DNA of 64,000 bases from an uncultured Methanosarcinales archaeon (GCA_964637115.1 CAZWVL010000004.1:1-64000); one strand, 5' to 3'. Shown: positions 1,098 through 64,000, numbered from the stretch's first letter. A program made the numbers and translations. The notes: a model not told the origin generated them from the letters alone.

Positions 1098-3353
1098 ATG
1101 GCAGAGTGTGGGAAATACGACATAATTCGTGAAGGCGAAGACATTATTCTAAGAGTAGACTGTGAAGGCTGCCCGTTTTTTCCGAGTTTGGAAGATGAGC
1201 CAAGATTAATGTCCATGACTATGGACATGCTGGCAGAAGCTGGCACTGTTACAAAGATTGTCTACATACAAAAACGTGACTTTGAATATGATGAAGCACA
1301 AGTTGTAATGTTATCTGAACTTGCAGCGATTTACAAAAGTCTTGTTGCGCAAAAATTCGCATACGAAATGCTTGCAAAGCCTGTTTGCGCCAAATGGATA
1401 AATCAAAGGTACGTTCAGATTCAGGATATTCTTTACAGGCAGTTCAAGGCAGATCCTATTGGAGCGTATGTTGAGCTGATTAGGCTTGCCAGAGATGAAA
1501 AAAGACAGATTGACGCTGGCTTAACAACACAGGAAGGCATGCAGTGTTTGCAGAATTATTTCAAATTGTTGCAGGAAGCGGTTAATATGCTTGAGCAGAC
1601 AAGGATGGTTAAGCTTTCTCAGCCTTATTTGCCTGGATTCCAGCTGGGCGATAGGACTGTTTACAAGCGCCTTTTTACTCCTACTATCAAGCCTGATTTT
1701 ATGTTTACAAAGCTGATGGCTTCCTTTCCACCAGAAGGCGAGGAATTGGCAAGTTATCAGGTTGGTAATACGGAGATTACTATTTTTCAGATGCCTGAAA
1801 GTGTGCAGTATTTGTACCATATGGTGCCGGCTGAATTTAAATTAAGTGAAGAAAAGTATGATTTGCTTGATGCTGCCAGAAAAATTATGTCAGAGCATAA
1901 GCCCAAGCGTTCTGAGTTTGTTGATCCTGAACGTATGCGCCAGGTGTTTACTTCTGTTGGCACTGATTTGTTGGAAGAGCTTGCGAATAATCGCGGGATG
2001 CACTTGCGGGGCAAGGATAGGGATGAGCTTGCCGAGATTCTCGTGCGCTATACTGTTGGTTTTGGTTTGATTGAGGTTTTGTTGCAGGATGACAAGGTGC
2101 AGGATATTACAATTAACTCTCCGATGGGCAGGATTCCTATGTTTATCGTGCACGACGAGTTTGGTGATTGTACTACGAACATTATTCCGACTGCGCCTGA
2201 GGGCGAGAGCTGGGCTTCAAAGTTAAGGATGATTTCTGGCAGGCCGTTGGACGAGGCTAATCCGATTCTTGACACAGAGCTTATTTTGCCTAATGCGCGC
2301 GCAAGAGTTGCTGCGATTACTGCTCCTCTTAATCCAACAGGACTTGCATACGCTCTCAGACGTCATCGTGACAAGCCCTGGACTTTGCCTTTGTTCATGA
2401 ACAATCGTATGCTGACACCTTTGGCTGCCGGTGTACTGAGCTTTTTGATTGACGGCAGCAGGACGATATTGATTGCCGGAACAAGAAGCAGCGGTAAAAC
2501 TTCTTTGCTTGGAAGCGTTATGGTTGACATTATGAGGCGTTCGAGAATTATAACGATTGAAGACACTCTTGAACTGCCTGTTGAAGCATTGCGCAAAATG
2601 AATTATAACATTCAAAGCATGAAAGTTGCTTCTGCGTTGACAAGGGGAACTACAGAAGTCAGTGCAGATGAAGGCATCAGGACAACTTTGCGTTTGGGTG
2701 ATTCAAGTTTGATTGTTGGTGAAGTCAGAAGCGTGGAAGCTCGTGCTTTGTACGAGGCTATGCGTGTTGGTGCTTTGGCTAATGTTGTTGCAGGAACGAT
2801 TCACGGTGATTCTCCTTATGGCGTATTTGACCGTGTCGTGAATGATTTGGGTGTTCCAAGAACCAGTTTCAAAGCAACTGACTTGATAGTTGTTGCAAAT
2901 CCGGTTAGAAGCCCCGATGGCATTCACCGCTTTAGACGCATCACGCAGATTACTGAGGTGCGTAAGCTTTGGGAAGAAGATCCTTTGACTGAGAACGGCT
3001 TTGTTGACTTGTTCAAGTATGATCCCCAAGTTGATGCTTTAGTTCCCACAAATGATTTGTTGAGGGGAGATAGCGATGTCATCAAGGCAGTTGCCGGCAA
3101 TGTCAAGGAATGGGCTGGCAATTGGGATGCTGTTTGGGATAACATTAATTTGCGCGCGAAGATGAAAGAAACATTAGTTTCTTCTGCTAATAAGCTGAAG
3201 AATTTTGACTTATTGGAAGCGGAATTTTATGTTCGCGCAAATGACGAATTCCATCGTATTTCTGAAAAAGTGCGTGATGAAGTCGGCAAGTTGGACAGCG
3301 AGCGCATATTTTTTGAATGGAATGAATGGCTGCGGAGTGCTGTTAAGCGATGA
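1098..3353 (+). CDS. Type II/IV secretion or type IV pilus assembly ATPase (VirB11/TadA/FlaI family)
   Basis: Walker A AGTRSSGKTS, Asp box TIEDTLEL, Walker B LIVGEVR, His box TIHG; RBS GAGGGG. Confidence 0.92.
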   Translation: MAECGKYDIIREGEDIILRVDCEGCPFFPSLEDEPRLMSMTMDMLAEAGTVTKIVYIQKRDFEYDEAQVVMLSELAAIYKSLVAQKFAYEMLAKPVCAKWINQRYVQIQDILYRQFKADPIGAYVELIRLARDEKRQIDAGLTTQEGMQCLQNYFKLLQEAVNMLEQTRMVKLSQPYLPGFQLGDRTVYKRLFTPTIKPDFMFTKLMASFPPEGEELASYQVGNTEITIFQMPESVQYLYHMVPAEFKLSEEKYDLLDAARKIMSEHKPKRSEFVDPERMRQVFTSVGTDLLEELANNRGMHLRGKDRDELAEILVRYTVGFGLIEVLLQDDKVQDITINSPMGRIPMFIVHDEFGDCTTNIIPTAPEGESWASKLRMISGRPLDEANPILDTELILPNARARVAAITAPLNPTGLAYALRRHRDKPWTLPLFMNNRMLTPLAAGVLSFLIDGSRTILIAGTRSSGKTSLLGSVMVDIMRRSRIITIEDTLELPVEALRKMNYNIQSMKVASALTRGTTEVSADEGIRTTLRLGDSSLIVGEVRSVEARALYEAMRVGALANVVAGTIHGDSPYGVFDRVVNDLGVPRTSFKATDLIVVANPVRSPDGIHRFRRITQITEVRKLWEEDPLTENGFVDLFKYDPQVDALVPTNDLLRGDSDVIKAVAGNVKEWAGNWDAVWDNINLRAKMKETLVSSANKLKNFDLLEAEFYVRANDEFHRISEKVRDEVGKLDSERIFFEWNEWLRSAVKR

Positions 3354-5482
3354 ATGAAGACCTTGTTGCTAAATATAAGCAAAAGTTGTCTGAGCAGCTT
3401 GAATTGCAGGCAAGCATGCCGAGTTCTCAGTTGTACAGCCGTGAGTATCAGATGTTTAGAAAGGAAATTCTGCCTCCTCACGCTACTGCTTTTGAAAAGA
3501 TATGCAATTTCTGCGGTAAATTGTTGAAGACTAAAGTAAAGCCTGAAAAATCTGCCCAAATGCAGGACGCGATTAATGCTTCGCATCTGCAGACTTCTCC
3601 CTCTGCCGTTATGGCTGCGAGTTTCATACTTCCGATTGTTTTCCTGATAATCGGGGTTTTCTTTTCTTTGCTCGTGCTGAACAGTATGTTCTTTGCCATG
3701 TTCAGTTTGCTGGTTGGCCTTGCCGGTATTTTCTTGTTGCAGAACGTGCCGTTTTTCCTGGCTAATCAATGGCGTATGAAAGCAAGCAATCAGATGGTTT
3801 TGTGTGTTTTTTACATCGTAACTTACATGCGGCACACGTCAAACTTGGAAAATGCTATTGAATTCGCTTCTGAGCATCTTGCGCCACCTTTGAGTCTTGA
3901 TTTAAGAAAAGTCATATGGGATGTTGAGAGTGGAAAGTACGAGAACATCAAGGATTCTTTGGAAGTTTATCTTAACGGCTGGCGCCAGTATAATATGGAA
4001 TTTGTTGAATCACTGCATTTGGTCGAGAGTTCTTTGTATGAAACTTCAAATGACCGCCGTTTGAGCCTGTTGGACAAGGCTTTGGATGTCATTCTTGATG
4101 AAACGTATGAGAAGATGTTGCATTACGCGCAGAATTTGAAAGGTCCAATTACAATGCTGCACATGCTTGGTGTTATCTTGCCTATTTTGGGCCTTGTCAT
4201 CTTGCCTCTTGTTGTCAGCTTTATGGAGGGTGTCAAGTGGTATCACATTTCTGCTTTGTACAACATTGCCTTGCCAATTATTGTTTACATTATGGGCAAA
4301 CAAATTTTGGCAAAGAGGCCGACTGGTTATGGTGATACTGATGTTGCCGAGATTAATCCCGCATTGAAAAAATATCGTAATGTGATCTTCAAGATTGCAG
4401 GTGTTGAGCTTACCATTCACCCTGCTTTTATTGGCATTGTTATAGGAATTATTTTTTCTCTAATCGCGCTTTCTCCTTTAATTATGCATTTGTTTAATCC
4501 AGATTTTGATTTCCAGATTGGAGGTTTTGACTTTTTGGGCTACAAGGAAAGCACGCTGTTTGAAGGTGTAGAAATTGGCCCGTTTGGTCTTGGCGCGAGC
4601 ATTATTTCTCTTTTCTTTCCATTAGCTTTGGCTTTTGGCTTTGGCCTTTTCTTCAGATTGCGAAGCCAGAACGTGATTAAGATTAGGGAAGAAGCAAAGA
4701 AACTGGAGGACGAGTTTGCTTCTGCGTTGTTCCAGCTGGGCAACAGGTTGGGTGATGGCTTGCCTGCAGAGATTGCTTTCCAGAAAGTTGCTGACGTGAT
4801 GGAGGATACCATTTCTGGCCGGTTTTTCAAACTTGTTTCTATAAATATCAGCAAGATGGGTATGAGCGTGAAGGAGGCTATCTTTAATCCGACTAGTGGC
4901 GCGATTGCTTCCTATCCAAGCGCGATTATTCAGTCTTCGATGAAAGTGTTGATTGAGAGCGTTAAGAAAGGCCCGATTATTGCAGCCCAGGCATTGCTTA
5001 ATGTTGCGCGTTACATTAAGGAAATTCACAAGGTGAACGAGCGTTTGAAGGATTTGATGGCCGACATCATTTCTGATATGAAATCGCAGATTTCCTTCTT
5101 GACTCCTGCTATCTCGGGCATTGTTATTGGTATTACTTCCATGATTACGTTTATTTTGGGCAGTTTATCAAAAAACATTACTAATTTGGGAGCCGAGCAG
5201 GCCGGCTCGCAGATTGGAACTTTGGCAAACTTTTTTGGTGATGGCGTTCCTACTTATTATTTCCAGGCTGTTGTCGGAATTTATGTTTTCCAGATAGTTT
5301 ACATCTTGACCATTCTTTCTAATGGAATTGAGAATGGCGCCGACAAACTGGAAGAAAGGTATTTGCTTGGCCAGAATTTGATTAGGAGCGTGGTGTTGTA
5401 CTGCCTAATTTCGCTTGTCGTGATGATTGTCTTCAACATGATTGCTTTGAATATTGTTGGCGTTGTGCCATTGATAGAATAA
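3350..5482 (+). CDS. T2SS F-domain membrane platform protein (TadC/FlaJ-like)
   Basis: Multiple TM segments alternating with cytoplasmic helical domains (LGDGLPAEIAF, LSLDLRKVIW); ATGA overlap with the ATPase. Confidence 0.85.
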   Translation: MNEDLVAKYKQKLSEQLELQASMPSSQLYSREYQMFRKEILPPHATAFEKICNFCGKLLKTKVKPEKSAQMQDAINASHLQTSPSAVMAASFILPIVFLIIGVFFSLLVLNSMFFAMFSLLVGLAGIFLLQNVPFFLANQWRMKASNQMVLCVFYIVTYMRHTSNLENAIEFASEHLAPPLSLDLRKVIWDVESGKYENIKDSLEVYLNGWRQYNMEFVESLHLVESSLYETSNDRRLSLLDKALDVILDETYEKMLHYAQNLKGPITMLHMLGVILPILGLVILPLVVSFMEGVKWYHISALYNIALPIIVYIMGKQILAKRPTGYGDTDVAEINPALKKYRNVIFKIAGVELTIHPAFIGIVIGIIFSLIALSPLIMHLFNPDFDFQIGGFDFLGYKESTLFEGVEIGPFGLGASIISLFFPLALAFGFGLFFRLRSQNVIKIREEAKKLEDEFASALFQLGNRLGDGLPAEIAFQKVADVMEDTISGRFFKLVSINISKMGMSVKEAIFNPTSGAIASYPSAIIQSSMKVLIESVKKGPIIAAQALLNVARYIKEIHKVNERLKDLMADIISDMKSQISFLTPAISGIVIGITSMITFILGSLSKNITNLGAEQAGSQIGTLANFFGDGVPTYYFQAVVGIYVFQIVYILTILSNGIENGADKLEERYLLGQNLIRSVVLYCLISLVVMIVFNMIALNIVGVVPLIE

Positions 5483-5488
5483 GAAAAA

Positions 5489-5562
5489 TGGGGGTGGCCA
5501 GATTTGAACTGGCGATTCTACCGTCTTCAGCGGTATGTTCTCCCAGGCTAAACTACACCCCC
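5489..5562 (-). tRNA. trnF: tRNA-Phe (GAA)
   Basis: Reverse complement folds as a cloverleaf: acceptor GGGGGTG/CACCCCC+A, D stem GTTT/GAAC, anticodon arm TACCG-CTGAAGA-CGGTA, T arm GCCAG-TTCAAAT-CTGGC; CCA not encoded; TTTTTAAA box about 25 nt upstream. Confidence 0.97.
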
Positions 5563-5598
5563 GGGTAATATAAGAACAAAAGAAGCGCTTTAAAAATC

Positions 5599-5886
5599 TT
5601 ACTGAACAATCTCTAATCTTCCAAACTTTCCCGTGCCTAATTGCTTTTCTCCTCTGAATTCTGAAACATAGCCGTTTATGATGTGCACTTTCATTCCTGC
5701 TTTTACTAAGTCGCATTGTTCGTTCCAGAGTGTTAAAGTGATTTCTCCTGATGCGTCTTTTGCTTTTGCGTTCGCGACTTTTCCTGATTTACCGAATTTG
5801 TCAAATGCACGAGGCTCCTGCATGCTGATTACTTCCACGACTATGTCGATTTTTCCTTGTCCTGCTTGTAAGTCTTTGATTTCCAT
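5599..5886 (-). CDS. ssb: Single OB-fold single-stranded DNA-binding protein
   Basis: OB-fold signature DASGEITLTLWNEQ...INGYVSEFRGEKQL; ATG at 5886 after GGAGATG. Confidence 0.85.
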   Translation of the reverse strand: MEIKDLQAGQGKIDIVVEVISMQEPRAFDKFGKSGKVANAKAKDASGEITLTLWNEQCDLVKAGMKVHIINGYVSEFRGEKQLGTGKFGRLEIVQ

Positions 5887-5938
5887 GTTCACATCTCCGA
5901 GTTACACGAGGAGGCCCGCCGAACTTGTTCGGCGATGC

Positions 5939-7417
5939 CTATATGTGCATCTTTCCAGTCATCAATTGATATAGCGTATCGCGTAATTCGCTTATTTTTA
6001 CTCTTTTCTGTGCTGCAGTATCGCGAGCTCTGATCGTTACATCGTTATTAGTTAAAGAATCAAAGTCTATTGTAATGCAAAATGGCACTCCAACTTCGTC
6101 TAACCTTGCATATCTTTTTCCTATGCTTCCTGTTTCATCATACATTACTTCGTAGCATTCTTTCAAGTCATCAAATACTTCTGTCGCTTTTTTGACTAGT
6201 TCTGGTTTGTTTGAAAGTAATGGGAATATTCCTGCCTGTAATGGCGCGATTGCTGCTGGCAGTGATAGCCATGTTCTGTCCTCTTTTTGTTTATACGCCA
6301 TTTCTAGTGCTACATAGAATGTTCTGTCTAATCCGATTGAGATTTCCCAAATGTGCGGGATGAATTTTTTGCCTTCCGGCGTTACAAATTGCAAGTCTGT
6401 TTTGCTTCCTTCCATGTGTCCTTTCAAATCATAATCTGTTCTGTAATTATTAGCAATTAACTCTACCCAACCTAATGAGGTTTCTACTTCAAAGTCCCAG
6501 CCCTCTTTTGCGTAGAATGCGCGTTCTTTGTCATCTAATTGTCTAAATCGCATTTTGTCTATTGGAATGCCGTATCGTTCAAACAATTGTTGTGTTCGCG
6601 CGAGATAGTAAGCTATTAACTTGCCGCTGACTAATTTATCTTTGACAAGCTTTTCTGCAGGCACGTATTCTATTTTGTCGCTGTCTGCTTTTTGTATGCG
6701 TAATGCATAAGCTTTGACTTCATCCCATCTTTCTATTTCGTTTATTTGTGTTGGGTCAAAGAATACTTCTGTTTCCATTTGTGAGAACTCTACTTGTCTT
6801 AACAATGTCTGTCTTGGTGAGATTTCGTTTCTGAATGATTTTCCTACTTGGCAGATTCCTTTTGGAAGTGTTACTCTCATTGTTCTTACCATTCTGCTCC
6901 AGTCTGCAAATATCGTCTGGCAGGTTTCTGGCCGGAGATAACAGGCTGCTTTTGTAGAAACGCCAACATCTGCTTTTACCATCATGTTGAAGCGTTTTAC
7001 GTCCATTAGTTCTCCTTTGCACTTAGAGCATTTTACTTTGTGTTCTCTCAGTGCAGCAGTCAGTTCTTCTACTGGTGCTGACTCTTTGAACGGTTTTTTC
7101 GTGATTTCTTCAAGCAGTTTGTCTACTCTATGGATAGTATTGCACTTTTTGCATTGTGTGACCGGGTCATTGAAGTTTGCCAGATGCCCTGAGCTTTTGA
7201 ATACGTCTTCTGGCATTATTACTGCGCCGTCTAATTCCAAGAATTCTTCTTTTTGCACGAGGTGTTTTCGCCATACTTCCACAACCTTTCTTCTTATTGT
7301 TGCTCCGTATGGTCCGAAATCATAGAATCCTGCTGGTGCATTTGCGTAAATCTCGCTCGCTGGATAGAAAAGGCTTCTTCTTAGTGCTAGATTAACGACA
7401 TCTTCATACGTAACCAT
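5939..7417 (-). CDS. glyS: Glycyl-tRNA synthetase (alpha2, archaeal/eukaryotic type)
   Basis: GFYDFGPYG, YLRPETCQ, motif 2 FRNEISPR...EFSQME, motif 3 EISIGLDR, anticodon domain IGKRYARLDEVGVPFCITID. Confidence 0.96.
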   Translation of the reverse strand: MVTYEDVVNLALRRSLFYPASEIYANAPAGFYDFGPYGATIRRKVVEVWRKHLVQKEEFLELDGAVIMPEDVFKSSGHLANFNDPVTQCKKCNTIHRVDKLLEEITKKPFKESAPVEELTAALREHKVKCSKCKGELMDVKRFNMMVKADVGVSTKAACYLRPETCQTIFADWSRMVRTMRVTLPKGICQVGKSFRNEISPRQTLLRQVEFSQMETEVFFDPTQINEIERWDEVKAYALRIQKADSDKIEYVPAEKLVKDKLVSGKLIAYYLARTQQLFERYGIPIDKMRFRQLDDKERAFYAKEGWDFEVETSLGWVELIANNYRTDYDLKGHMEGSKTDLQFVTPEGKKFIPHIWEISIGLDRTFYVALEMAYKQKEDRTWLSLPAAIAPLQAGIFPLLSNKPELVKKATEVFDDLKECYEVMYDETGSIGKRYARLDEVGVPFCITIDFDSLTNNDVTIRARDTAAQKRVKISELRDTLYQLMTGKMHI

Positions 7418-7462
7418 AAGAAAAAGCTATCGAGAGTGCTTTTTAAAGGTTTCTGACAATAC

Positions 7463-7483
7463 TTATATATAGAATATATTTCT
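7463..7483 (+). promoter_or_regulatory. TATA box (TTATATA) followed by candidate operator AGAATATATTTCT upstream of SBP1
   Basis: Imperfect palindrome AGAA-TATAT-TTCT at 7471-7483; the same 12-mer AGAATATATTTC occurs at 26496-26507 upstream of the third SBP operon. Confidence 0.5.
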
Positions 7484-7506
7484 CTATACTCTATCACTCA
7501 TGGAGG

Positions 7507-8667
7507 ATGGATACTATGAATAAGACATTGTTAGGAATTTTAAGTTTGTTATTTGTGTTTTTGGTCGCGTGTGCTCCTGCACAGGAAATGAAAGCAGAGC
7601 CAAAGGTGGAAGAAAAGAAAGCGGTTGCACCGGCTGAAGTAACATTTGGCTGGATTGGCGCTTTAACTGGTGGTGCGGCTACGATTGGAGAACCAATCAG
7701 GAATGCTGTGGTATTAGCGGTTGAAGAAATTAATGCAAATAATGTAATTCCAGGCAAGAAATTGAATATCATCTACGAAGATGATGCCTGTGATGCGAAG
7801 AATAGCGCAACAGCCGTGCAGAAGTTATCAAATGTTGATAAGGTCACAGCAATTATCGGTCCGATGTGTTCTGGTGCAACACTTGCTGATGCACCAATTA
7901 TAGAGGAAGCAAAGATGTTGACGGTTTCTTATTCCGCAACAAACCCATCAATTAAAGATGCCGGCGACTACTTATTTAGAAACGTTCCTTCTGATAATGG
8001 CCAGGGCGTTCAGGCCGCAGCACTTATTAATAAGCTCGGCTCAAAGAAGATCGCCATTATCCACATCCAGAATGACTGGGGTGTTGGTTTGCTGAAAGTG
8101 TTTAAGTCCGAAGCTGAAAAACTTGGTCTTAAAATTGTCGCGACTGAAACGTACAGTCCTGACGCCACCGACTTCAAAACTCAGTTGGCAAAGATAAAGG
8201 CTGCAAAGCCTGAAACCTTGTACATGTTGTCTCATCCTACAGATGCCGGTATTGTTCTTAAGCAAGCGTCTGAAGCTGGCTTGAAAATACAGATTATTGG
8301 TGCAGATGGATCAAAGGACGACGCAGTAATTTCAGCCGCCGGTGCTGCTGCAGAGGGATTTATTGTAACTCTGCCTGGAGTGCCAAAGTCGTCTGAGCTT
8401 GACAAGTTTGCAACTGCGTACAAGGCTAAGTATGGCAAAGAATTCAGTGCATACACGCCTGAAGCTTACGACGTTGCGTACATTCTTGCCAAGGCTTGTG
8501 CTGCAACTGATTGCACTTCAACTGCTATGAAGGACTACTTGTACAAGATGGGACCGTACACGGGCGCATCTGGAACGTACGAGTTTGACCAGAATGGTGA
8601 AGTCGACAAGCCGTATGATTACTTTACGGTAAAAGACGGCAAGTGGGAAGCATATATTGCCTCCTGA
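7507..8667 (+). CDS. SBP1: branched-chain amino acid-type ABC substrate-binding lipoprotein (LivJ/K, Peripla_BP_6 fold)
   Basis: Lipobox LVAC; GWIGALTGG, AVEEINANN, EDDAC, GPMCSG, SYSAT, DFKTQLAKIK, AYDVA. Confidence 0.93.
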   Translation: MDTMNKTLLGILSLLFVFLVACAPAQEMKAEPKVEEKKAVAPAEVTFGWIGALTGGAATIGEPIRNAVVLAVEEINANNVIPGKKLNIIYEDDACDAKNSATAVQKLSNVDKVTAIIGPMCSGATLADAPIIEEAKMLTVSYSATNPSIKDAGDYLFRNVPSDNGQGVQAAALINKLGSKKIAIIHIQNDWGVGLLKVFKSEAEKLGLKIVATETYSPDATDFKTQLAKIKAAKPETLYMLSHPTDAGIVLKQASEAGLKIQIIGADGSKDDAVISAAGAAAEGFIVTLPGVPKSSELDKFATAYKAKYGKEFSAYTPEAYDVAYILAKACAATDCTSTAMKDYLYKMGPYTGASGTYEFDQNGEVDKPYDYFTVKDGKWEAYIAS

Positions 8668-57897: not shown

Positions 57898-58029
57898 TCA
57901 GCTGCAGAGCTGAGCGTGCATGAATGAGATGCATTCTTTGCAGAGCGCTTCTGCTTGCACGAGTTGTGCCAGTCTGCCGCTGGGTGTTTCTCCACCTCTG
58001 TGGCCGCATATCACACAGGGCTTATGCAT
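57898..58029 (-). CDS. 43-aa CxxC...CxxC zinc-finger microprotein overlapping the radA stop
   Basis: [43 protein letters not shown]; ATGCATAA overlap. Confidence 0.55.
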
Positions 58030-59071
58030 CCTTGACTCCTGCTTCCGTAACTTGGAATATTGCTTCGCCTTCTGGCATGCATGGTGAGTCGACCATCTTG
58101 GCAACTCTAGTACCTTTCTTGCCTCTGCGCAAGTACAATCTGTACGTGCTGTTGTGCGCTACAATATGGCCGCCGATTGCTTCTGTTGGGTCGCCAAAGA
58201 ACTGGTCTGGCTTTGCCATTACTTGGTTCGTGACGTAGACCGCAATGTTGTGTTTGTCTGCAACCTTCATCAGCACGTGCATGTGTTTGTTGATTCTTTG
58301 CTGTCTGTCTGCGAGTGTTCCTCTGCCGATGAATTCTGCTCTGAAGTGTGCTGTCAAGCTGTCAACAACAAGGAGCTTGACATTCACGCCTTGTTTAATT
58401 AGGTCGTCAATTTTTTCTGCTAAAAGCATCTGATGGTCTGAGTTGAATGCTCGTGCTACTTTTACGCCTTTGAGCGCTTCCTGTGGGTCAAGGCCGCAGT
58501 CTTCTGCTATGCTTTTGATGCGTTCTGGTCTGAACGTGCCTTCAGTGTCTATGTAAACGCAAACTCCGCTTGCTCCTCCTTTTTCTGGTGGTAATTGTAC
58601 TCTGACAGCTAATGTGTGTGCAATTTGTGATTTTCCAGAGCCGTATTGACCGTATGCTTCTGTTATTGCTCCTGTTTCAAATCCGCCGCCCATTAGTTTG
58701 TCTAGTTCAGCGCTTCCTGTCTTTATTTTCACCATTTTCTCGCGTTTTTTCATTATTTCTTCGCCGGATGTGAATTCCATTTCGAGGTTTGCGCGTGCTA
58801 TTGCAATGATTTTCTTGGCTGTTGCTTCTGACATTTCTGTTGCGCCGACTATTTCTCCTGGTGTTGCTACAGCAATGCTCATCAAGTCGTGGAATCCTGC
58901 TGCTGCCAGTTTTTCAATTGATGCCGGCCCTACGCCTGGCAGGTCTTCAACGCTTGCTATTTTCTTTTTTGGTATTTCTTCCATTTTTTTCGCTACCTCG
59001 AAAACTCCTTCTGATGTTTCGACGCGTGCAATTGTTTCTTCATCATAATCTATTGTTCTTTTGTTTGCCAT
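58022..59071 (-). CDS. radA: DNA repair and recombination protein RadA
   Basis: N-terminal Hh[14 protein letters not shown] polymerisation motif, [32 protein letters not shown]; RBS GGTGA. Confidence 0.97.
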
Positions 59072-59127
59072 GTTTATCACCTTTTTAGTTTTATTGATTG
59101 ATTTGTTGGAAATTTTACGGAGCTTAA

Positions 59128-59170
59128 TAAATAAAATAAAAAATTACCCGCAGCAGGGTTGCTGCTGGGG
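59128..59170 (-). terminator. Hairpin plus T-tract downstream of the 59200-59475 gene
   Basis: GCAGCA-GGGT-TGCTGC stem (59150-59165) extended by CCC/GGG, followed on the minus strand by TAATTTTTTATTTTATTT. Confidence 0.55.
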
Positions 59171-59199
59171 CGGGGTAGTTGTGGCTTCTTTCTTTTTCT

Positions 59200-59475
59200 T
59201 CAAATGGTCACCTCTGTTTTTGGTTGTTCATCTGCATGGCCGTTAAGCACTAGATATCTGAATGCTTCTTCTATTACAAGTGCTACTTTCGGCAGGTCAT
59301 TTACTCGTAACGAGTCTGTGCTTTTCCATTCGCCTGTCTTGTCTTTGTACCTTCTTTGCAGGCTTACCGAGTGGCTCTCGAATGTTTTGCCATCCTTGCC
59401 TACTCCGGTGTTTTTCCATATTGTTGCACTGATTGCTCCAGTGCTGAACTTTTTTTCTGGTTTATTTCCTTCCAT
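59200..59475 (-). CDS. Small PC4/Whirly-like putative ssDNA-binding protein
   Basis: KKFSTGAISATIWKN...SVSLQRRYKDKTGEWKST...DLP pattern. Confidence 0.5.
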   Translation of the reverse strand: MEGNKPEKKFSTGAISATIWKNTGVGKDGKTFESHSVSLQRRYKDKTGEWKSTDSLRVNDLPKVALVIEEAFRYLVLNGHADEQPKTEVTI

Positions 59476-59587
59476 TTTTTTACCTCTTGCTATTCGCGTT
59501 TTGTTTCAGCCCACGACTTTGCCGTGAGTGAGGTGCTCGCATGTTTACTCTTAGAACAGGCAGGGTTTAAATAGCTCAGGAAGGTGG

Positions 59588-59944
59588 TTGTCCAGTGTCC
59601 AGTGGGGGTTTATCGACGATAATAATATAAAGCCGGAATTATTCCGACATTGTATGCCTTGGTATGAAGCTGTTTACCGTGTATCAGAAAGTAGTTTTGG
59701 TGGCGTTAGATATGATCATTGGACTGGGCGGCTTAAATTTGAAGCACGAAATCATGATCATGCAACTCTGCTTGCCAGAGAAGACAGAGAACGTATGTGC
59801 GATATGTTCACGCGTTATTCTTTGATTGATGTAATCGAAAGCAAACCGCCCAAGCCAGTAAAGTTGAAAATTGTTAAAGTTGATGGTGGCAAGCTTTATT
59901 TTAATAAGGATACAAAGGAGTTGGTTGGTGCGGCCTTTCGCTAA
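59588..59944 (+). CDS. Hypothetical protein (start uncertain)
   Basis: ORF fills the gap; non-ATG start. Confidence 0.4.
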   Translation: MSSVQWGFIDDNNIKPELFRHCMPWYEAVYRVSESSFGGVRYDHWTGRLKFEARNHDHATLLAREDRERMCDMFTRYSLIDVIESKPPKPVKLKIVKVDGGKLYFNKDTKELVGAAFR

Positions 59945-60267
59945 TATCTGAATGTCAGCTGACCCGTATAACCGTTTCTTCCGCTGCTGTCTTTCATGAC
60001 TACAGGTATTGCATATTCCGAACCGATCATTTTGAGAAACTCAGTCGCCATACAACCATTAAACATACTTGGCATTTCAAATTCTTCGCCTGCTTGGGCG
60101 ATAACTTCAAGTGATGATGGTGGAAGACCTGCAAAGTTGCGTGCTCTGCAGTTTTCAAGCAGCCGCACTCTAAGTGTGCCGTTGTTTTCTGAAACAACTT
60201 CTACTGGAACGCTAATTCCAAGCACGCTCTGTGGTTTCGCTACACTAAGATATAACCTCTTTTCCAT
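59941..60267 (-). CDS. Hypothetical protein (108 aa)
   Basis: ATG-started ORF, convergent 4-nt overlap. Confidence 0.5.
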   Translation of the reverse strand: MEKRLYLSVAKPQSVLGISVPVEVVSENNGTLRVRLLENCRARNFAGLPPSSLEVIAQAGEEFEMPSMFNGCMATEFLKMIGSEYAIPVVMKDSSGRNGYTGQLTFRY

Positions 60268-60306
60268 CGTTTGTACAAAACTAAATTCCTAGCTTATTAA
60301 ATTTTA

Positions 60307-60768
60307 TTAAAAAATATGCCTCACGAAGATAAGCACGTCCAACACAAGCACCCCTCCAAGCGTCAGCAGTTCCATTAACCCATCTGTCATTATCGGCCCT
60401 TGTATTCTGAAAGTGCTGACTGGGTGCAATAAATTGCAGCCGAGTCTTGTGAAGCAATCAGATGCAAGATGTGATGTATATCCAATTGCCAGTGGAATGC
60501 CAATAATATCTAATTTTGCAAAGTGGAATCCAAAATATATGATGACTGCCGGAAATATGCTGTGGAAGAATCCTCTGTGTTCAAAGACTGCTGGAATCCA
60601 GCGTGTTATTGGCAGCATTCTGTTAATTTTGCTGTTCTTATGATCAACATCCGGCAGCAATGCTCCCAAGATGACAAGTGGGATGAAAATATACCATGAT
60701 TGATGCAATAATGGAAAGAGTATGAGTCCCGCAAGCAGTCCTATTGCCATGTGCGTTCTGCCCATCAT
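60307..60768 (-). CDS. Membrane-bound metal-dependent hydrolase (YdjM-like)
   Basis: RTHMA, LPDVDH, HRGFFHS, SHLASD. Confidence 0.88.
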   Translation of the reverse strand: MMGRTHMAIGLLAGLILFPLLHQSWYIFIPLVILGALLPDVDHKNSKINRMLPITRWIPAVFEHRGFFHSIFPAVIIYFGFHFAKLDIIGIPLAIGYTSHLASDCFTRLGCNLLHPVSTFRIQGPIMTDGLMELLTLGGVLVLDVLIFVRHIF

Positions 60769-60810
60769 CTTCAGTCACCTTTTACAGCAAGAGAAATAGC
60801 GTACTATAAA

Positions 60811-61788
60811 TTACTGCTGGCTTACTCTTGCCAGTTCTTCTTCTGGGTTTGCTTTGTAGACTTGGTTTACGATGAATTCTATTCTGTCAAAGAACGTGTT
60901 TTTCTTCGCACGGCCGATAAATCTGAATTGTTCTCCCAATAATTCTGTTTTAAGAGGTTCAAATGTTTCTGGATTGACTCTGTAAGCTACCATTTGCTCT
61001 TTGTTTTTGCTGAGTAATCTTTCTGCTTGGTTTCTGAACAATACTATTCTCATATTCTCCGTGCCATCATCTAGAAACACATTAACTAAGTAACTATAGT
61101 CAGGCATTAATGCCGAGTGTTCTTCACACACCCATTGTCCTTCTACTTCTTTCAGTCTTGATGAACATTGTGGGCAGACTTCGAAGAACTTAGGATCAAA
61201 TACTTGTACGATTGTGCCTACAACTTCTACTTGTTCGTCGCTTTCTGTTAGTTCTTTCAGGGTTTTGCGTGTTGCTTTGTTTGGCTTTACTTCTGGCACG
61301 GTTTCTTTTGGATTTAAGTTTACTCTGCTTCCTTCATTGAGATGTACTTCTTTGTAGCCTCTTTGATTCTCGCGTACCATTCCTCCTGATACTTTGACTG
61401 GCGCGCCTGTGCTTATCTGAGCAAGTAAATCTGCTTGATTTCCCCAACAGACTATTCGCACAACGCCTGTATCGTCTCCCACTAAGAAGCTGCCAACTTT
61501 TCCTGCGCTGCCGTCTGCGCGTTTGAATTCTTTGACTTCGTAAATTTGTGTTACTCTGCCAAGGATTTCTGCATTTCTCATGCCTGGCAGTAAATCTTTT
61601 ATTTTGCCGCCGCCTTCAAAGAGCTTTACTCCTAATTCATTTGCAATTATGTGTGCCGCGCCTTCTTTAGAAATGAGTCCTGCAAGTGCTACGCATTTGG
61701 CGTCTATTCTTGTCATCAAATCTGCTTCTGCAAGACCTGTTTTTTCTTTTATGCGCGCCAATATGTCTGGCAATGGCATTCTAATCAT
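60811..61788 (-). CDS. Replication protein A-like OB-fold protein with Zn finger
   Basis: VGDDTGVVRIVCWG and LDDGTENMRIVLF OB motifs; CPQC...CEEH. Confidence 0.82.
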   Translation of the reverse strand: MIRMPLPDILARIKEKTGLAEADLMTRIDAKCVALAGLISKEGAAHIIANELGVKLFEGGGKIKDLLPGMRNAEILGRVTQIYEVKEFKRADGSAGKVGSFLVGDDTGVVRIVCWGNQADLLAQISTGAPVKVSGGMVRENQRGYKEVHLNEGSRVNLNPKETVPEVKPNKATRKTLKELTESDEQVEVVGTIVQVFDPKFFEVCPQCSSRLKEVEGQWVCEEHSALMPDYSYLVNVFLDDGTENMRIVLFRNQAERLLSKNKEQMVAYRVNPETFEPLKTELLGEQFRFIGRAKKNTFFDRIEFIVNQVYKANPEEELARVSQQ

Positions 61789-61863: not shown

Positions 61864-61959
61864 CTAAGCCGCCGCGCCTCAATTACACTGAGGTGAATTT
61901 TTTTCTCCCCTTGCAAATGCAGGGGAGAAAAAATTCAGTCAAAAACCGCGGCGGCTTAG
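61864..61959. repeat. 96-nt nested inverted repeat (candidate structured ncRNA or palindromic element)
   Basis: Perfect 13-bp outer stem CTAAGCCGCCGCG/CGCGGCGGCTTAG; inner ~19-bp stem TGAATTTTTTTCTCCCC(T)TGC/GCAGGGGAGAAAAAATTCA; side hairpin CTCA...TGAG. Confidence 0.8.
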
Positions 61960-61996: not shown

Positions 61997-62536
61997 TTAC
62001 GGCTTGCACGCGCTTAGGTCTGTTTTTGTGTCTATAGTAAAGCTCGGGGCAAACCATATGTGTCCGATATTTTCAAGAACTAATCCTTTTAGTGTCAGGT
62101 CTTGTTTGACGGGCAGGATTGCAATTGCGTGGATGTTCTTGCCCTCCAAATAGAGTTCATAATTGTTTTTTGGGATTTTTGTGACGGGCGATTGTGCATT
62201 GTAAGCATCTATGTATTTGTCGAGTTCTTGGTTGAATCTTGGTGTTAGGCCTGTTGTGCACGCAGTAAGTACGTCAGGCATAGAAAGTTCTGCTGATTTT
62301 TCAAGATATGTTATGATGTTTTCTTTTACATATGGCGCTTTTAACAGCGCCATTTCAGTATCTCCCAGCGTTGTCTTGTTTTCCGCAACTTTTGTGGTGA
62401 GCTGCAAGAACAGGAACGAAAGTGCCATAACTACCACAACTATCATGCTGAGTGCATAATCTAGTCCGCGCTTCGAAAAACGAAGTTTTTTGAAGCTAGA
62501 AAATGCCGTGCATTTTCTTTGTTTGTTCATCCCCAT
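61997..62536 (-). CDS. Pilin-like/class III signal peptide protein
   Basis: RFSKRG|LDYALSMIVVVVMALSFLFL: basic-G then hydrophobic helix. Confidence 0.55.
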   Translation of the reverse strand: MGMNKQRKCTAFSSFKKLRFSKRGLDYALSMIVVVVMALSFLFLQLTTKVAENKTTLGDTEMALLKAPYVKENIITYLEKSAELSMPDVLTACTTGLTPRFNQELDKYIDAYNAQSPVTKIPKNNYELYLEGKNIHAIAILPVKQDLTLKGLVLENIGHIWFAPSFTIDTKTDLSACKP

Positions 62537-63514
62537 TTCACCTTCATGGTCAGCTTGAATTTTATTGCCTTGCCTGGTTTTACCGGCAGGTATGCTTCTT
62601 GGCTTGTGTCTTGAAGAACGTTAAGTCCAATTGCTTTTATGAGCCGCCAGACAGGATCGACAGCTATTGCAAGACTCCAACTGGCAATTACGTGCAGTGG
62701 TTCATTGCTTGTAACTGAGAGCGTGCAGTCTTTTGTCGAAGTGCAGCTGGCACTGTAGCTTCCTTTTGGCAGCGCAATATAATTTTTTGCATAGTTTTCA
62801 ATTATTGTTGCGGCAGTGCTTGCATCTTTGTCGGCTATTTCTATGCCGTGTTTATCGATGAGCTCAGCAAAGAAGTTTTGTAGTTCTACATTTGCTGCTA
62901 TGCTTTCTGCCTGATTTTTCTCTGCTGCCGTAATATTGTTTCCAACCCAGATGTAGAAAATGATGATTAAGATTGCTATGATGAATATTGAAAGTATTAG
63001 TTTTGCCCCTTCCAATGCTCCGCGTTTATTTTTTGAGTTCATATTTTCTTGGATAATATTCTTCTATGGTTAAATTCTGGATTGTGCCTTCTGCCATTAC
63101 TTTGCGTTGTTCTATGTAAGTTTCATACTTGAATTTGGCAAGGGGTTTTGCGCGTTTGTAGAATAGTTCATCGTAAACCGCACTTTTTCCGTCGAGTGAA
63201 ACATTGTAAGTGAGAAGTTTTGTCGTGTAGAGCTTATCCAACCCAGCCAAGTTTGCAGTATAAAGGAATGGGCTTGTTTGCCCCGTGTATTCACTTGTAA
63301 TCCAAAGTCTGCTTTTTATCTGTTGTGCTAGGACTGCTTGGTCTATTGATATCGGTTGCACACTGGATTCAACAAGGTTTTTTGGAATTATGACCATTGA
63401 TAACGCTACACACGCAGTGAGGAATGCGTACCACGCTGCAAAAAGGAGAAGATTTCTGGGTCCATTCGCTCTCCTTGAAAAGCGTAGCTTTTCGAGGCTC
63501 GAAAATGCCGTGCA
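62471..63514. repeat. 42-bp in-frame palindromic element, two copies (62471-62512 and 63473-63514)
   Basis: 34/42 identical by hand; 11-bp stem with 3-nt loop and two compensatory pair changes, followed by CT(A/C)GAAAATGCCGTGCA. Confidence 0.85.
62527..63042 (-). CDS. Pilin-like/class III signal peptide protein
   Basis: KNKRG|ALEGAKLILSIFIIAILIIIFYIWV. Confidence 0.6.
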   Translation of the reverse strand: MNSKNKRGALEGAKLILSIFIIAILIIIFYIWVGNNITAAEKNQAESIAANVELQNFFAELIDKHGIEIADKDASTAATIIENYAKNYIALPKGSYSASCTSTKDCTLSVTSNEPLHVIASWSLAIAVDPVWRLIKAIGLNVLQDTSQEAYLPVKPGKAIKFKLTMKVKWG

Positions 63515-63535
63515 TCGTTGCTTATACCACGCCAT
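63026..63535 (-). CDS. Pilin-like membrane-anchored protein
   Basis: RFSRRA|NGPRNLLLFAAWYAFLTACVALSMVII. Confidence 0.45.
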   Translation of the reverse strand: MAWYKQRCTAFSSLEKLRFSRRANGPRNLLLFAAWYAFLTACVALSMVIIPKNLVESSVQPISIDQAVLAQQIKSRLWITSEYTGQTSPFLYTANLAGLDKLYTTKLLTYNVSLDGKSAVYDELFYKRAKPLAKFKYETYIEQRKVMAEGTIQNLTIEEYYPRKYELKK

Positions 63536-64000
63536 ATTTTTTCACCCCTTCAAATATCGCGTTTGCTAGGTTGCCCGTGCTGCCCAGTATGCTTGTTTTT
63601 TTCTGCGCATTGCCTATTTCAAGTATTACTGCCGGCCTTTTTCCTTTGAGCACTTGTTTTGCATCATCTGCTGCTAATCTGCTGACATCTATTGGTATTG
63701 GTCTTACCGGCAGGTTGAATTCTGTTGTTATTGTGTTAAGTATTTCGCACGCTAATCTTTTGCTGTTTTTGTTTTCTGGATTATAGTATGCTTTGACAAC
63801 CTCTAAATCGTCTGCTCTGCTTCCTACGTGCAGTGAAAGTAAAGCATCTCCTGCCTTGTTTTGTCTTACGTCAATTGATGCAACACTGTCCGCATCTAAT
63901 GCGCGTGTTGGATTTACAATCACTCCTCCTGCTGCTATTGTGAATGATTTTGCAAGCCGCATTGTGTATTTGCTTTCTTTCAAACCCACACTGTCAATTG
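63522..64000 (-). CDS. N-acetylmuramoyl-L-alanine amidase-like protein (Amidase_3 fold), 5'-truncated by the window
   Basis: ESKYTMRLAK, NPTR, DALLSLHVG, SKRLACEIL, PAVILEIGN, LANAIFEGV; frame stays open to position 64000. Confidence 0.72.
   Translation of the reverse strand, partial: IDSVGLKESKYTMRLAKSFTIAAGGVIVNPTRALDADSVASIDVRQNKAGDALLSLHVGSRADDLEVVKAYYNPENKNSKRLACEILNTITTEFNLPVRPIPIDVSRLAADDAKQVLKGKRPAVILEIGNAQKKTSILGSTGNLANAIFEGVKKYGVV

Follow-up and report, generated by a model that had tools for sequence, protein, structure and literature searches.

An Amidase_3 domain lacking its first metal histidine on a putative pilin-like carrier in a conserved woesearchaeal gene island

Introduction

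Why should an archaeon that very probably makes no murein keep, beside three pilin-like genes, a gene resembling those of peptidoglycan amidases? This question is raised by positions 61997–64000 of the window, the whole 64,000-nt stretch analysed here, which forms the first 64 kb of a 142-kb contig (C4, CAZWVL010000004.1) in a 1.27-Mb genome of 98% completeness. Relatives of the amidase-like gene carry the source label Candidatus Woesearchaeota, and we read the host as a Woesearchaeales-type DPANN archaeon. On the hosts and lifestyle of Woesearchaeota, published work describes large proteins with SLT domains and suggests contact with bacteria. An earlier note on the window proposed a pilus-associated wall-opening apparatus aimed at bacteria. 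Our analysis revealed that the protein has lost its first metal ligand and that related loci carry exchangeable heads of predicted murein hydrolases. On balance, we slightly favor the view that the amidase-like protein is here a retained, non-catalytic binding or structural subunit of a pilin-like carrier type.

Results

The region is occupied by four minus-strand open reading frames, with successive overlaps of 14, 17, and 10 nt:

63522–64000, minus strand: 3′ end of the amidase-like gene, encoding its last 158 aa, assigned by reading frame, Pfam, an AlphaFold (AF2) model, fold matches, and site mapping.
63026–63535, minus strand: gene +1, 169 aa, with a basic leader, a hydrophobic helix, and a domain of no known family.
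62527–63042, minus strand: gene +2, 171 aa, with the leader NKRG/ALEG, a hydrophobic helix, and no known family.
61997–62536, minus strand: gene +3, 179 aa, a carrier domain alone, with a likely start at the ATGA overlap at 62530.

The amidase-like gene continues past the window edge to occupy contig positions 63522–64544 (340 aa, with an ATGA overlap with the preceding gene); its longest reading frame ends at contig position 64577 (351 aa), and gene starts in the module are uncertain by a few codons. In the 340-aa numbering, a basic leader and a hydrophobic helix (17–40) precede an amphipathic helix (43–61), a beta domain (70–140), and the C-terminal Amidase_3 fold or head (160–340), with key sites at K170, E190, H239, and E309. 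The part in front of the head is referred to as its carrier.

Profile searches revealed that the visible 158 aa match Amidase_3 at 25.5 bits (Pfam cut-off 27) and that the full-length protein reaches 33.6 bits against PF01520, above the 27-bit gathering cut-off. This match spans residues 175–346 of the 351-aa form and profile positions 1–173 of 174; a phmmer search of the single protein against the Protein Data Bank (PDB) sequences gave no match. In the full-protein AF2 model, derived from 32 homologues with a mean predicted local distance difference test score (pLDDT) of 87.3, the hydrophobic helix runs into the amphipathic helix packed on a small beta sheet, followed by a short linker and the head, which possesses a six-stranded sheet and flanking helices like the solved Amidase_3 enzymes. 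Residues 160–340 superpose on 14 solved Amidase_3 structures with Z-scores of 17.7–21.7 and root-mean-square deviations of 2.1–2.7 Å over 158–169 residues. The Foldseek template modelling score of the head against Amidase_3 is 0.73–0.75, and the next fold, a poly-gamma-glutamate hydrolase, scores Z 10.7. Given this strong superposition, a chance match is excluded, and the modelled C-terminal domain is a genuine Amidase_3 fold.

The conserved metal ligands of Amidase_3 are two His and one Glu, as named in the LytH paper (PMC9245657). Alignment of the family profile to Staphylococcus aureus LytH (7tj4) identified KES as the Glu ligand, SLH as the second His ligand, and ILEIG as the conserved Glu, in agreement with the earlier assignment of these motifs; in the protein, E190, H239, and E309 align with the zinc Glu, the second zinc His, and the conserved catalytic Glu of LytH. 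The first zinc His, which the earlier note expected just past the window edge, is absent. Its position is taken by Lys170 (codon AAA), in the segment IAIDPGKGYDG against LDPGHGG in LytH. A sequencing error at this site was ruled out, because AAA is two base changes from any His codon and independent assemblies of relatives carry the same Lys. The sequence beyond the edge, where the earlier note had proposed to look for a GH motif, a signal peptide, and binding domains, supplied the basic leader and hydrophobic helix, but no GH motif, known wall-binding domain, or Sec/Tat signal.

A family census over 1.84 billion representative proteins yielded 362 clusters, most of 270–380 aa with the same two-part build. 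The ligand set H-E-H-E is retained in 64 of 178 members and K-E-H-E, like the window protein, occurs in 11; the remaining members are variously degenerate or without the ligand segment. Better conserved than any ligand among the 178 are Cys153 in the linker and Cys266 in the head, which therefore probably form a disulfide of an extracellular protein. By rough counts on a 127-tip FastTree tree, no fewer than 38 changes between intact and degenerate states are needed, and the Lys of the first ligand site arises or changes at least 10 times. In the closest clade (67%–75% identical), the sites read KEHE, KEYE, KEYE, REYE, KENE, KEHE, and KEHE, the second His being replaced by Tyr or Asn in four of seven members. 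Conservation in this clade is 75% for the head and 72% for the N-terminal domain (N-domain). The ligands degenerate in a head that matches the N-domain in conservation, and the aligned residues thus point to a metal site that is decaying while the domain is kept.

Degenerate sites occur in half of the 34 species compared, some of which have lost the whole ligand segment. It is thus unlikely, in our estimate, that the head is still an active murein amidase used against bacteria, its zinc held by Glu190, His239, and a water or another residue. The coordinating His is conserved across Amidase_3 (PMC9245657), the second His is also replaced in four of the seven members of its own clade, and no other wall hydrolase was found in the genome to cooperate with it, although the protein retains three of the four catalytic residues, constraint acts on the head, Lys has appeared at the first site independently at least 10 times, and the modules of relatives are clearly murein-directed.

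The amidase-gene carrier matches in many genomes over positions 1–140 only, in open frames of 130–200 aa, several of which are followed by in-frame stops; the head has thus been lost outright many times. Coupling of the site decay to head loss on the second carrier, described below, was tested and rejected, as an intact site is found in 5 of 11 head-bearing and 11 of 21 head-less loci. At one locus (L035 of genome G024, 2779–8142), the Amidase_3 head is degenerate (Y-A-D-E), the second carrier has Amidase_2, and the next gene encodes SLT; one amidase type may have been replaced by another there.

Synteny was compared across 34 loci representing many families of the order, and the layout proved to be common to them: the island, an amidase-type carrier, two proteins mostly of 130–200 aa, and a third protein of 156–1452 aa, often followed by rpa and a YdjM-type gene. 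The third protein has a ~180-residue N-terminal carrier common to all 34 loci, the window's included, and gene +3 is homologous over residues 17–175 to all 34 positional orthologues. Behind this second carrier, relatives bear SLT, Peptidase_M23, Amidase_2, M15/VanY, M15_4, M74, or canonical Amidase_3 heads, which start near residue 205 in five of the first seven head-bearing proteins found. The catalytic motifs are intact in the five second-carrier heads read (ES/GLMQ; HxxxD and HxH; H-E-H-E). Of 201 sampled genomes of the order, 173 have a profile match to the second carrier, the open frames spanning ~170–1430 aa, and 154 have the amidase-gene carrier, about 55 of those with an amidase-like head. 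With a narrow close-relative profile, all 33 matches in a 301-genome sample of the phylum fell inside this order. These tallies, and no other claim, draw on the unpublished genomes G354 (301-genome sample) and G112, G121, and G183 (201-genome samples); a word-index search for longer carrier homologues found two proteins only. By gene content, the four-gene tail is a module of a head-bearing carrier, two small pilin-like proteins, and a second carrier, on which predicted murein hydrolase heads have been swapped between lineages.

A search for murein synthesis in the host found one Mur_ligase_M match, no transpeptidase, and no SLT. Murein synthesis by the organism itself is, on this gene content, very improbable and was rejected. 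The heads of relatives, with their intact motifs, argue strongly at the family level that the module arose as equipment for handling bacterial cell walls, in a host without a murein synthesis set. The proposed pilus-linked wall-opening apparatus therefore stands for the family, given the island and the intact heads in relatives, but not for this genome, in which the zinc His is absent, gene +3 is head-less, and no other murein hydrolase was found. A genome-wide search with the Pfam SLT model and the SLT, M23, Amidase_2, and M15 heads of relatives found nothing, and the four window genes contain no SLT domain. A six-frame PF01520 search of the genome found nothing, not even the amidase-like gene, and is too insensitive to judge whether other copies exist.

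It is very improbable that the head targets a glycan-peptide link of the archaeon's own surface layer, the pseudomurein of a methanogen partner, or another non-murein amide, the bacterial link being incidental. Amidase_3-like folds do grade into the poly-gamma-glutamate hydrolase at Z 10.7. However, the gap between Amidase_3 (Z at least 17.7) and other folds (at most 10.7) is large, the heads on the neighbouring carrier of relatives are all murein-specific (SLT, M23, M15, M74, and Amidase_2), and the genome itself shows one Mur-ligase-type gene, no transpeptidase, and no SLT.

As for the pilin-like character of the carriers, the leader of the amidase-like protein ends in K-R-A before the hydrophobic helix, and in the family consensus the N-terminus opens with K-K-[AG]-Q and leads through some polar residues and L-P-P into a hydrophobic helix. 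All three downstream proteins begin, by eye, with a basic stretch ending in [KR][KR][GA] followed by ~20 hydrophobic residues, as the earlier note had described for these overlapping genes. The [KR]-[GA] leader plus helix pattern is present in the amidase gene, +1, +2, and +3, with 3–8 polar residues after the putative site, and the [KR][KR][GA]-before-helix motif is common to ~15 consecutive island genes. The N-domain model (pLDDT 90.2) comprises the helices 17–40 and 43–61 and then seven short strands. In a structural search of 48,161 chains, its best matches were the pilins or pseudopilins EpsI, Thermus thermophilus PilA5, Streptococcus sanguinis PilB, GspI, and EpsG, at Z 3.1–3.9, which is below the trust level of the tool; the model is thus suggestive of a pilin fold rather than proof of one. 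Alignment by hhalign among the families of +1, +2, +3, and the N-domain found similarity confined to the leaders, indicating that they are distinct families.

The leader of gene +1 holds an in-frame palindromic insert, FSSLEKLRFSRRA, which is missing from the orthologue in genome G159. A palindrome-rich in-frame stretch of ~45 nt encoding (T)FSSxEKLRFS[RK]R is seen in the leaders of both +1 and +3 (63460–63535 and 62460–62536) and in a small pilin-like gene at contig C4 67800–67882 (L003 7800–7882), and the G159 orthologues start immediately downstream of it (MRLNKKG..., MKRAQG...). The stretch resembles either an insertion that a cleaved leader can tolerate or an RNA-level signal between cistrons.

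An alternative is that the proteins are membrane-anchored ectoproteins with a plain signal anchor, never polymerised, acting where the archaeal surface touches a partner cell. LytH and CwlD are held at the membrane through an N-terminal helix and require partner proteins, and these are the closest solved relatives of the head; furthermore, the pilin fold match is weak, the leaders are non-canonical, and the island neither contains nor adjoins an ATPase gene in the loci with flanks listed. We nevertheless find this rather doubtful, because the [KR][KR][GA] motif runs through ~15 consecutive island genes, including Cys-rich proteins resembling major pilins, the top structural matches of the N-domain are pilins and not random folds, and in-frame inserts are tolerated in the leaders of +1 and +3, which fits a cleaved leader.

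The genome also encodes candidate assembly machinery, comprising one Peptidase_A24 prepilin peptidase on contig C3 (L044 1480–2334; 52–55 bits) and two adjacent genes at the other end of the window:

1098–3353, plus strand: type IV filament ATPase of the FlaI/TadA type; no second ATPase of the T2SSE family was found in the genome.
3350–5482, plus strand: 710-aa polytopic membrane protein whose start overlaps the ATPase stop, presumed from position only to be a TadC/FlaJ-like platform.

If the 710-aa protein is indeed the platform, it is very divergent from TadC/FlaJ. The earlier note had named this pair as possible assembly factors of the pilus; its ATPase is the only one of type IV found in the genome, and the membrane partner is unmatched by any family model.

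Among the three downstream genes, positional orthologues of +1 have 144–278 aa (mostly 144–192) and occur in every compared locus whose contig reaches the position. An Atlas search for +1 and +2 returned unnamed Woesearchaeota clusters only; the nearest named clusters, DUF7287/7288/7262, score 0.77–0.86 and serve as leads only. The small middle genes, too, are able to bear heads, as shown by genome G400 (L056 2935–4104), where the +2 protein is 389 aa long and includes DUF2272 (45.9 bits). Gene +3 has no Pfam domain and no enzyme head behind its carrier and is among the shortest of the third downstream proteins. It aligns to residues 1–171 of the 259-aa G159 orthologue and then ends, and is without the GG...CG..GY.W segment found in most carriers. 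By these alignments, it is a reduced form of the carrier.

The amidase-like gene is not the head of a four-gene operon, as it lies near the tail of a long minus-strand gene run. Nearly all genes of this run begin with [KR][KR]G and a hydrophobic helix, and they include four K-G-Q proteins as well as small Cys-rich proteins resembling major pilins. The island begins with a large protein (contig C4 76435–78000+; L003 16435–18000) in which Cys-rich repeats and thrombospondin-type-3-like Asp-rich calcium-binding motifs precede a transmembrane segment and a Lys/Glu-rich tail. Archaeal radA and rpa adjoin the four-gene module: in 58022–61788, beyond the island tail, come rpa, a gene for a YdjM-type membrane hydrolase, a short reading frame resembling PC4, and radA. 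With rpa within a few kb of the island in 13 of 20 loci and the gene order recurring in many families, this adjacency of surface and DNA-repair genes is unexpectedly stable across the order. Recent transfer or contamination was ruled out, because the guanine-cytosine (GC) content is even, archaeal radA and rpa are adjacent, and the locus is conserved across the order. Between gene +3 and rpa lies one further feature:

61864–61959, no strand assigned: inverted-repeat element directly after the gene +3 stop, with 13-nt perfect outer arms and an inner 13-nt hairpin.

These repeats may terminate the transcript. The gap that holds them is 208 nt long, and the same gap is 22 nt in G159; the element is possibly a small mobile insert.

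Discussion

The slightly favored reading, that of a retained and probably non-catalytic subunit, is based on the reduction of the apparatus in this genome, where a metal ligand is missing from one head and the second carrier has no head at all. The first head would probably have been kept as a wall-binding or purely structural subunit. We propose a putative model in which the single A24 prepilin peptidase would cut the leaders, and the FlaI/TadA-type ATPase and its membrane partner (1098–5482) would lift the proteins into a pilus or a short pseudopilus. Such a filament could present the heads to the wall of a bacterial partner. In relatives, the first carrier displays Amidase_3 and the second SLT, M23, M15, M74, or Amidase_2; in this genome, the head with Lys for the first zinc His would presumably no longer cut but might still bind murein.

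Several observations weigh against this model. The ATPase is 57 kb away from the island, and its 710-aa neighbour matched no Pfam or NCBIfam model. The pilin matches of the N-domain are weak (Z 3.1–3.9), and Foldseek on the same domain gave no pilin match, only weak OB-like and coiled-coil rows. The leaders are non-canonical, in that the [KR][GA] site is separated from the helix by several polar residues, and the pattern was judged by eye. Loss of activity is deduced from one ligand, E190, H239, and E309 being still in place, and Lys has recurred at this site at least 10 times, which might reflect an alternative site that works.

A bolder version of the model, which we put forward tentatively, is that the four-gene module forms the tip complex of an archaeal type IV filament with exchangeable murein cutters, the zinc-less head having become a murein-recognising adhesin. 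Such a complex would be likened to bacterial minor-pilin tip complexes. If true, this would be the first archaeal pilus adhesin aimed at the bacterial cell wall, and these Woesearchaeota would be recognised as living in partnership with bacteria or preying on them. The locus itself adds murein-directed domains on pilin-like carriers, at fixed positions in a near-universal island of the order, together with head swapping between lineages and an Amidase_3 head kept after decay of its metal site. The carriers, the intact and decayed heads, and the single peptidase and ATPase provide parts for asking which bacteria are touched, and how.

In both sequence and fold, the head comes closest to LytH (7tj4; 31% identity, Z 21.1) and CwlD of Clostridioides difficile (7rag). 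It shares with these enzymes the placement of the Glu ligand, the second His, and the conserved Glu, and an N-terminal helix is likewise the presumed anchor. Unlike them, the protein has Lys for the first metal His, no Asp two residues after the second His, and an N-terminal domain of helix and beta sheet, and it is encoded in an archaeal pilin-like island, where neither an ActH-type nor a GerS-type partner is evident.

Modular type IV pilins consist of a pilin-like module and a functional module on a short linker, and the head is proposed to be exposed on the filament (PMC8179133). S. sanguinis PilB resembles the window protein in that a small pilin-like module carries a head on a short linker, with a weak match to the N-domain (Z 3.6). 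The difference from the bacterial modular pilins lies in the archaeal host, the Amidase_3 head, and a pilin identity that is putative. The published survey of modular pilins was confined to bacteria, and no amidase module turned up when its main text was searched by term (PMC8179133).

Large SLT-domain surface proteins of Woesearchaeota/Pacearchaeota have been proposed to bind or degrade bacterial walls (PMC8204110, PMC9723730), and a term search of these two sources gives no mention of pili or amidases; pilin-like carriers, the Amidase_3-bearing gene, and the swapping of heads are all absent from their accounts. These proteins (fam00969) share the lineage and the proposed target, bacterial murein, and the SLT-bearing second carriers of relatives probably belong to this known group; unlike them, no SLT domain was found in the window's genome. 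Archaeal peptidoglycan hydrolases kill bacteria, and Nanoarchaeota are rich in them (PMC12352652); the survey described there required a known wall-binding and a catalytic domain and sought Sec/Tat signals. The window protein is likewise a murein hydrolase domain in an archaeon without murein, but has no known wall-binding domain, no Sec/Tat signal, and a head that is probably inactive. By term search of PMC8204110, PMC9723730, PMC12352652, and PMC8179133, pilin-like carriers for these enzymes, an Amidase_3-bearing carrier, and its recurrent decay are not described.

In summary, the family offers a natural series for a hydrolase turning into a binding module. A comparable outcome is represented by EnvC, NlpD, and SpoIIQ, catalytically dead wall-hydrolase domains used as binders or regulators. 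The window protein resembles them in a hydrolase fold kept under selection after the loss of a metal ligand. Whereas those are bacterial LytM/M23 domains of the cell's own wall machinery, the domain described here is an Amidase_3 fold in an archaeon.

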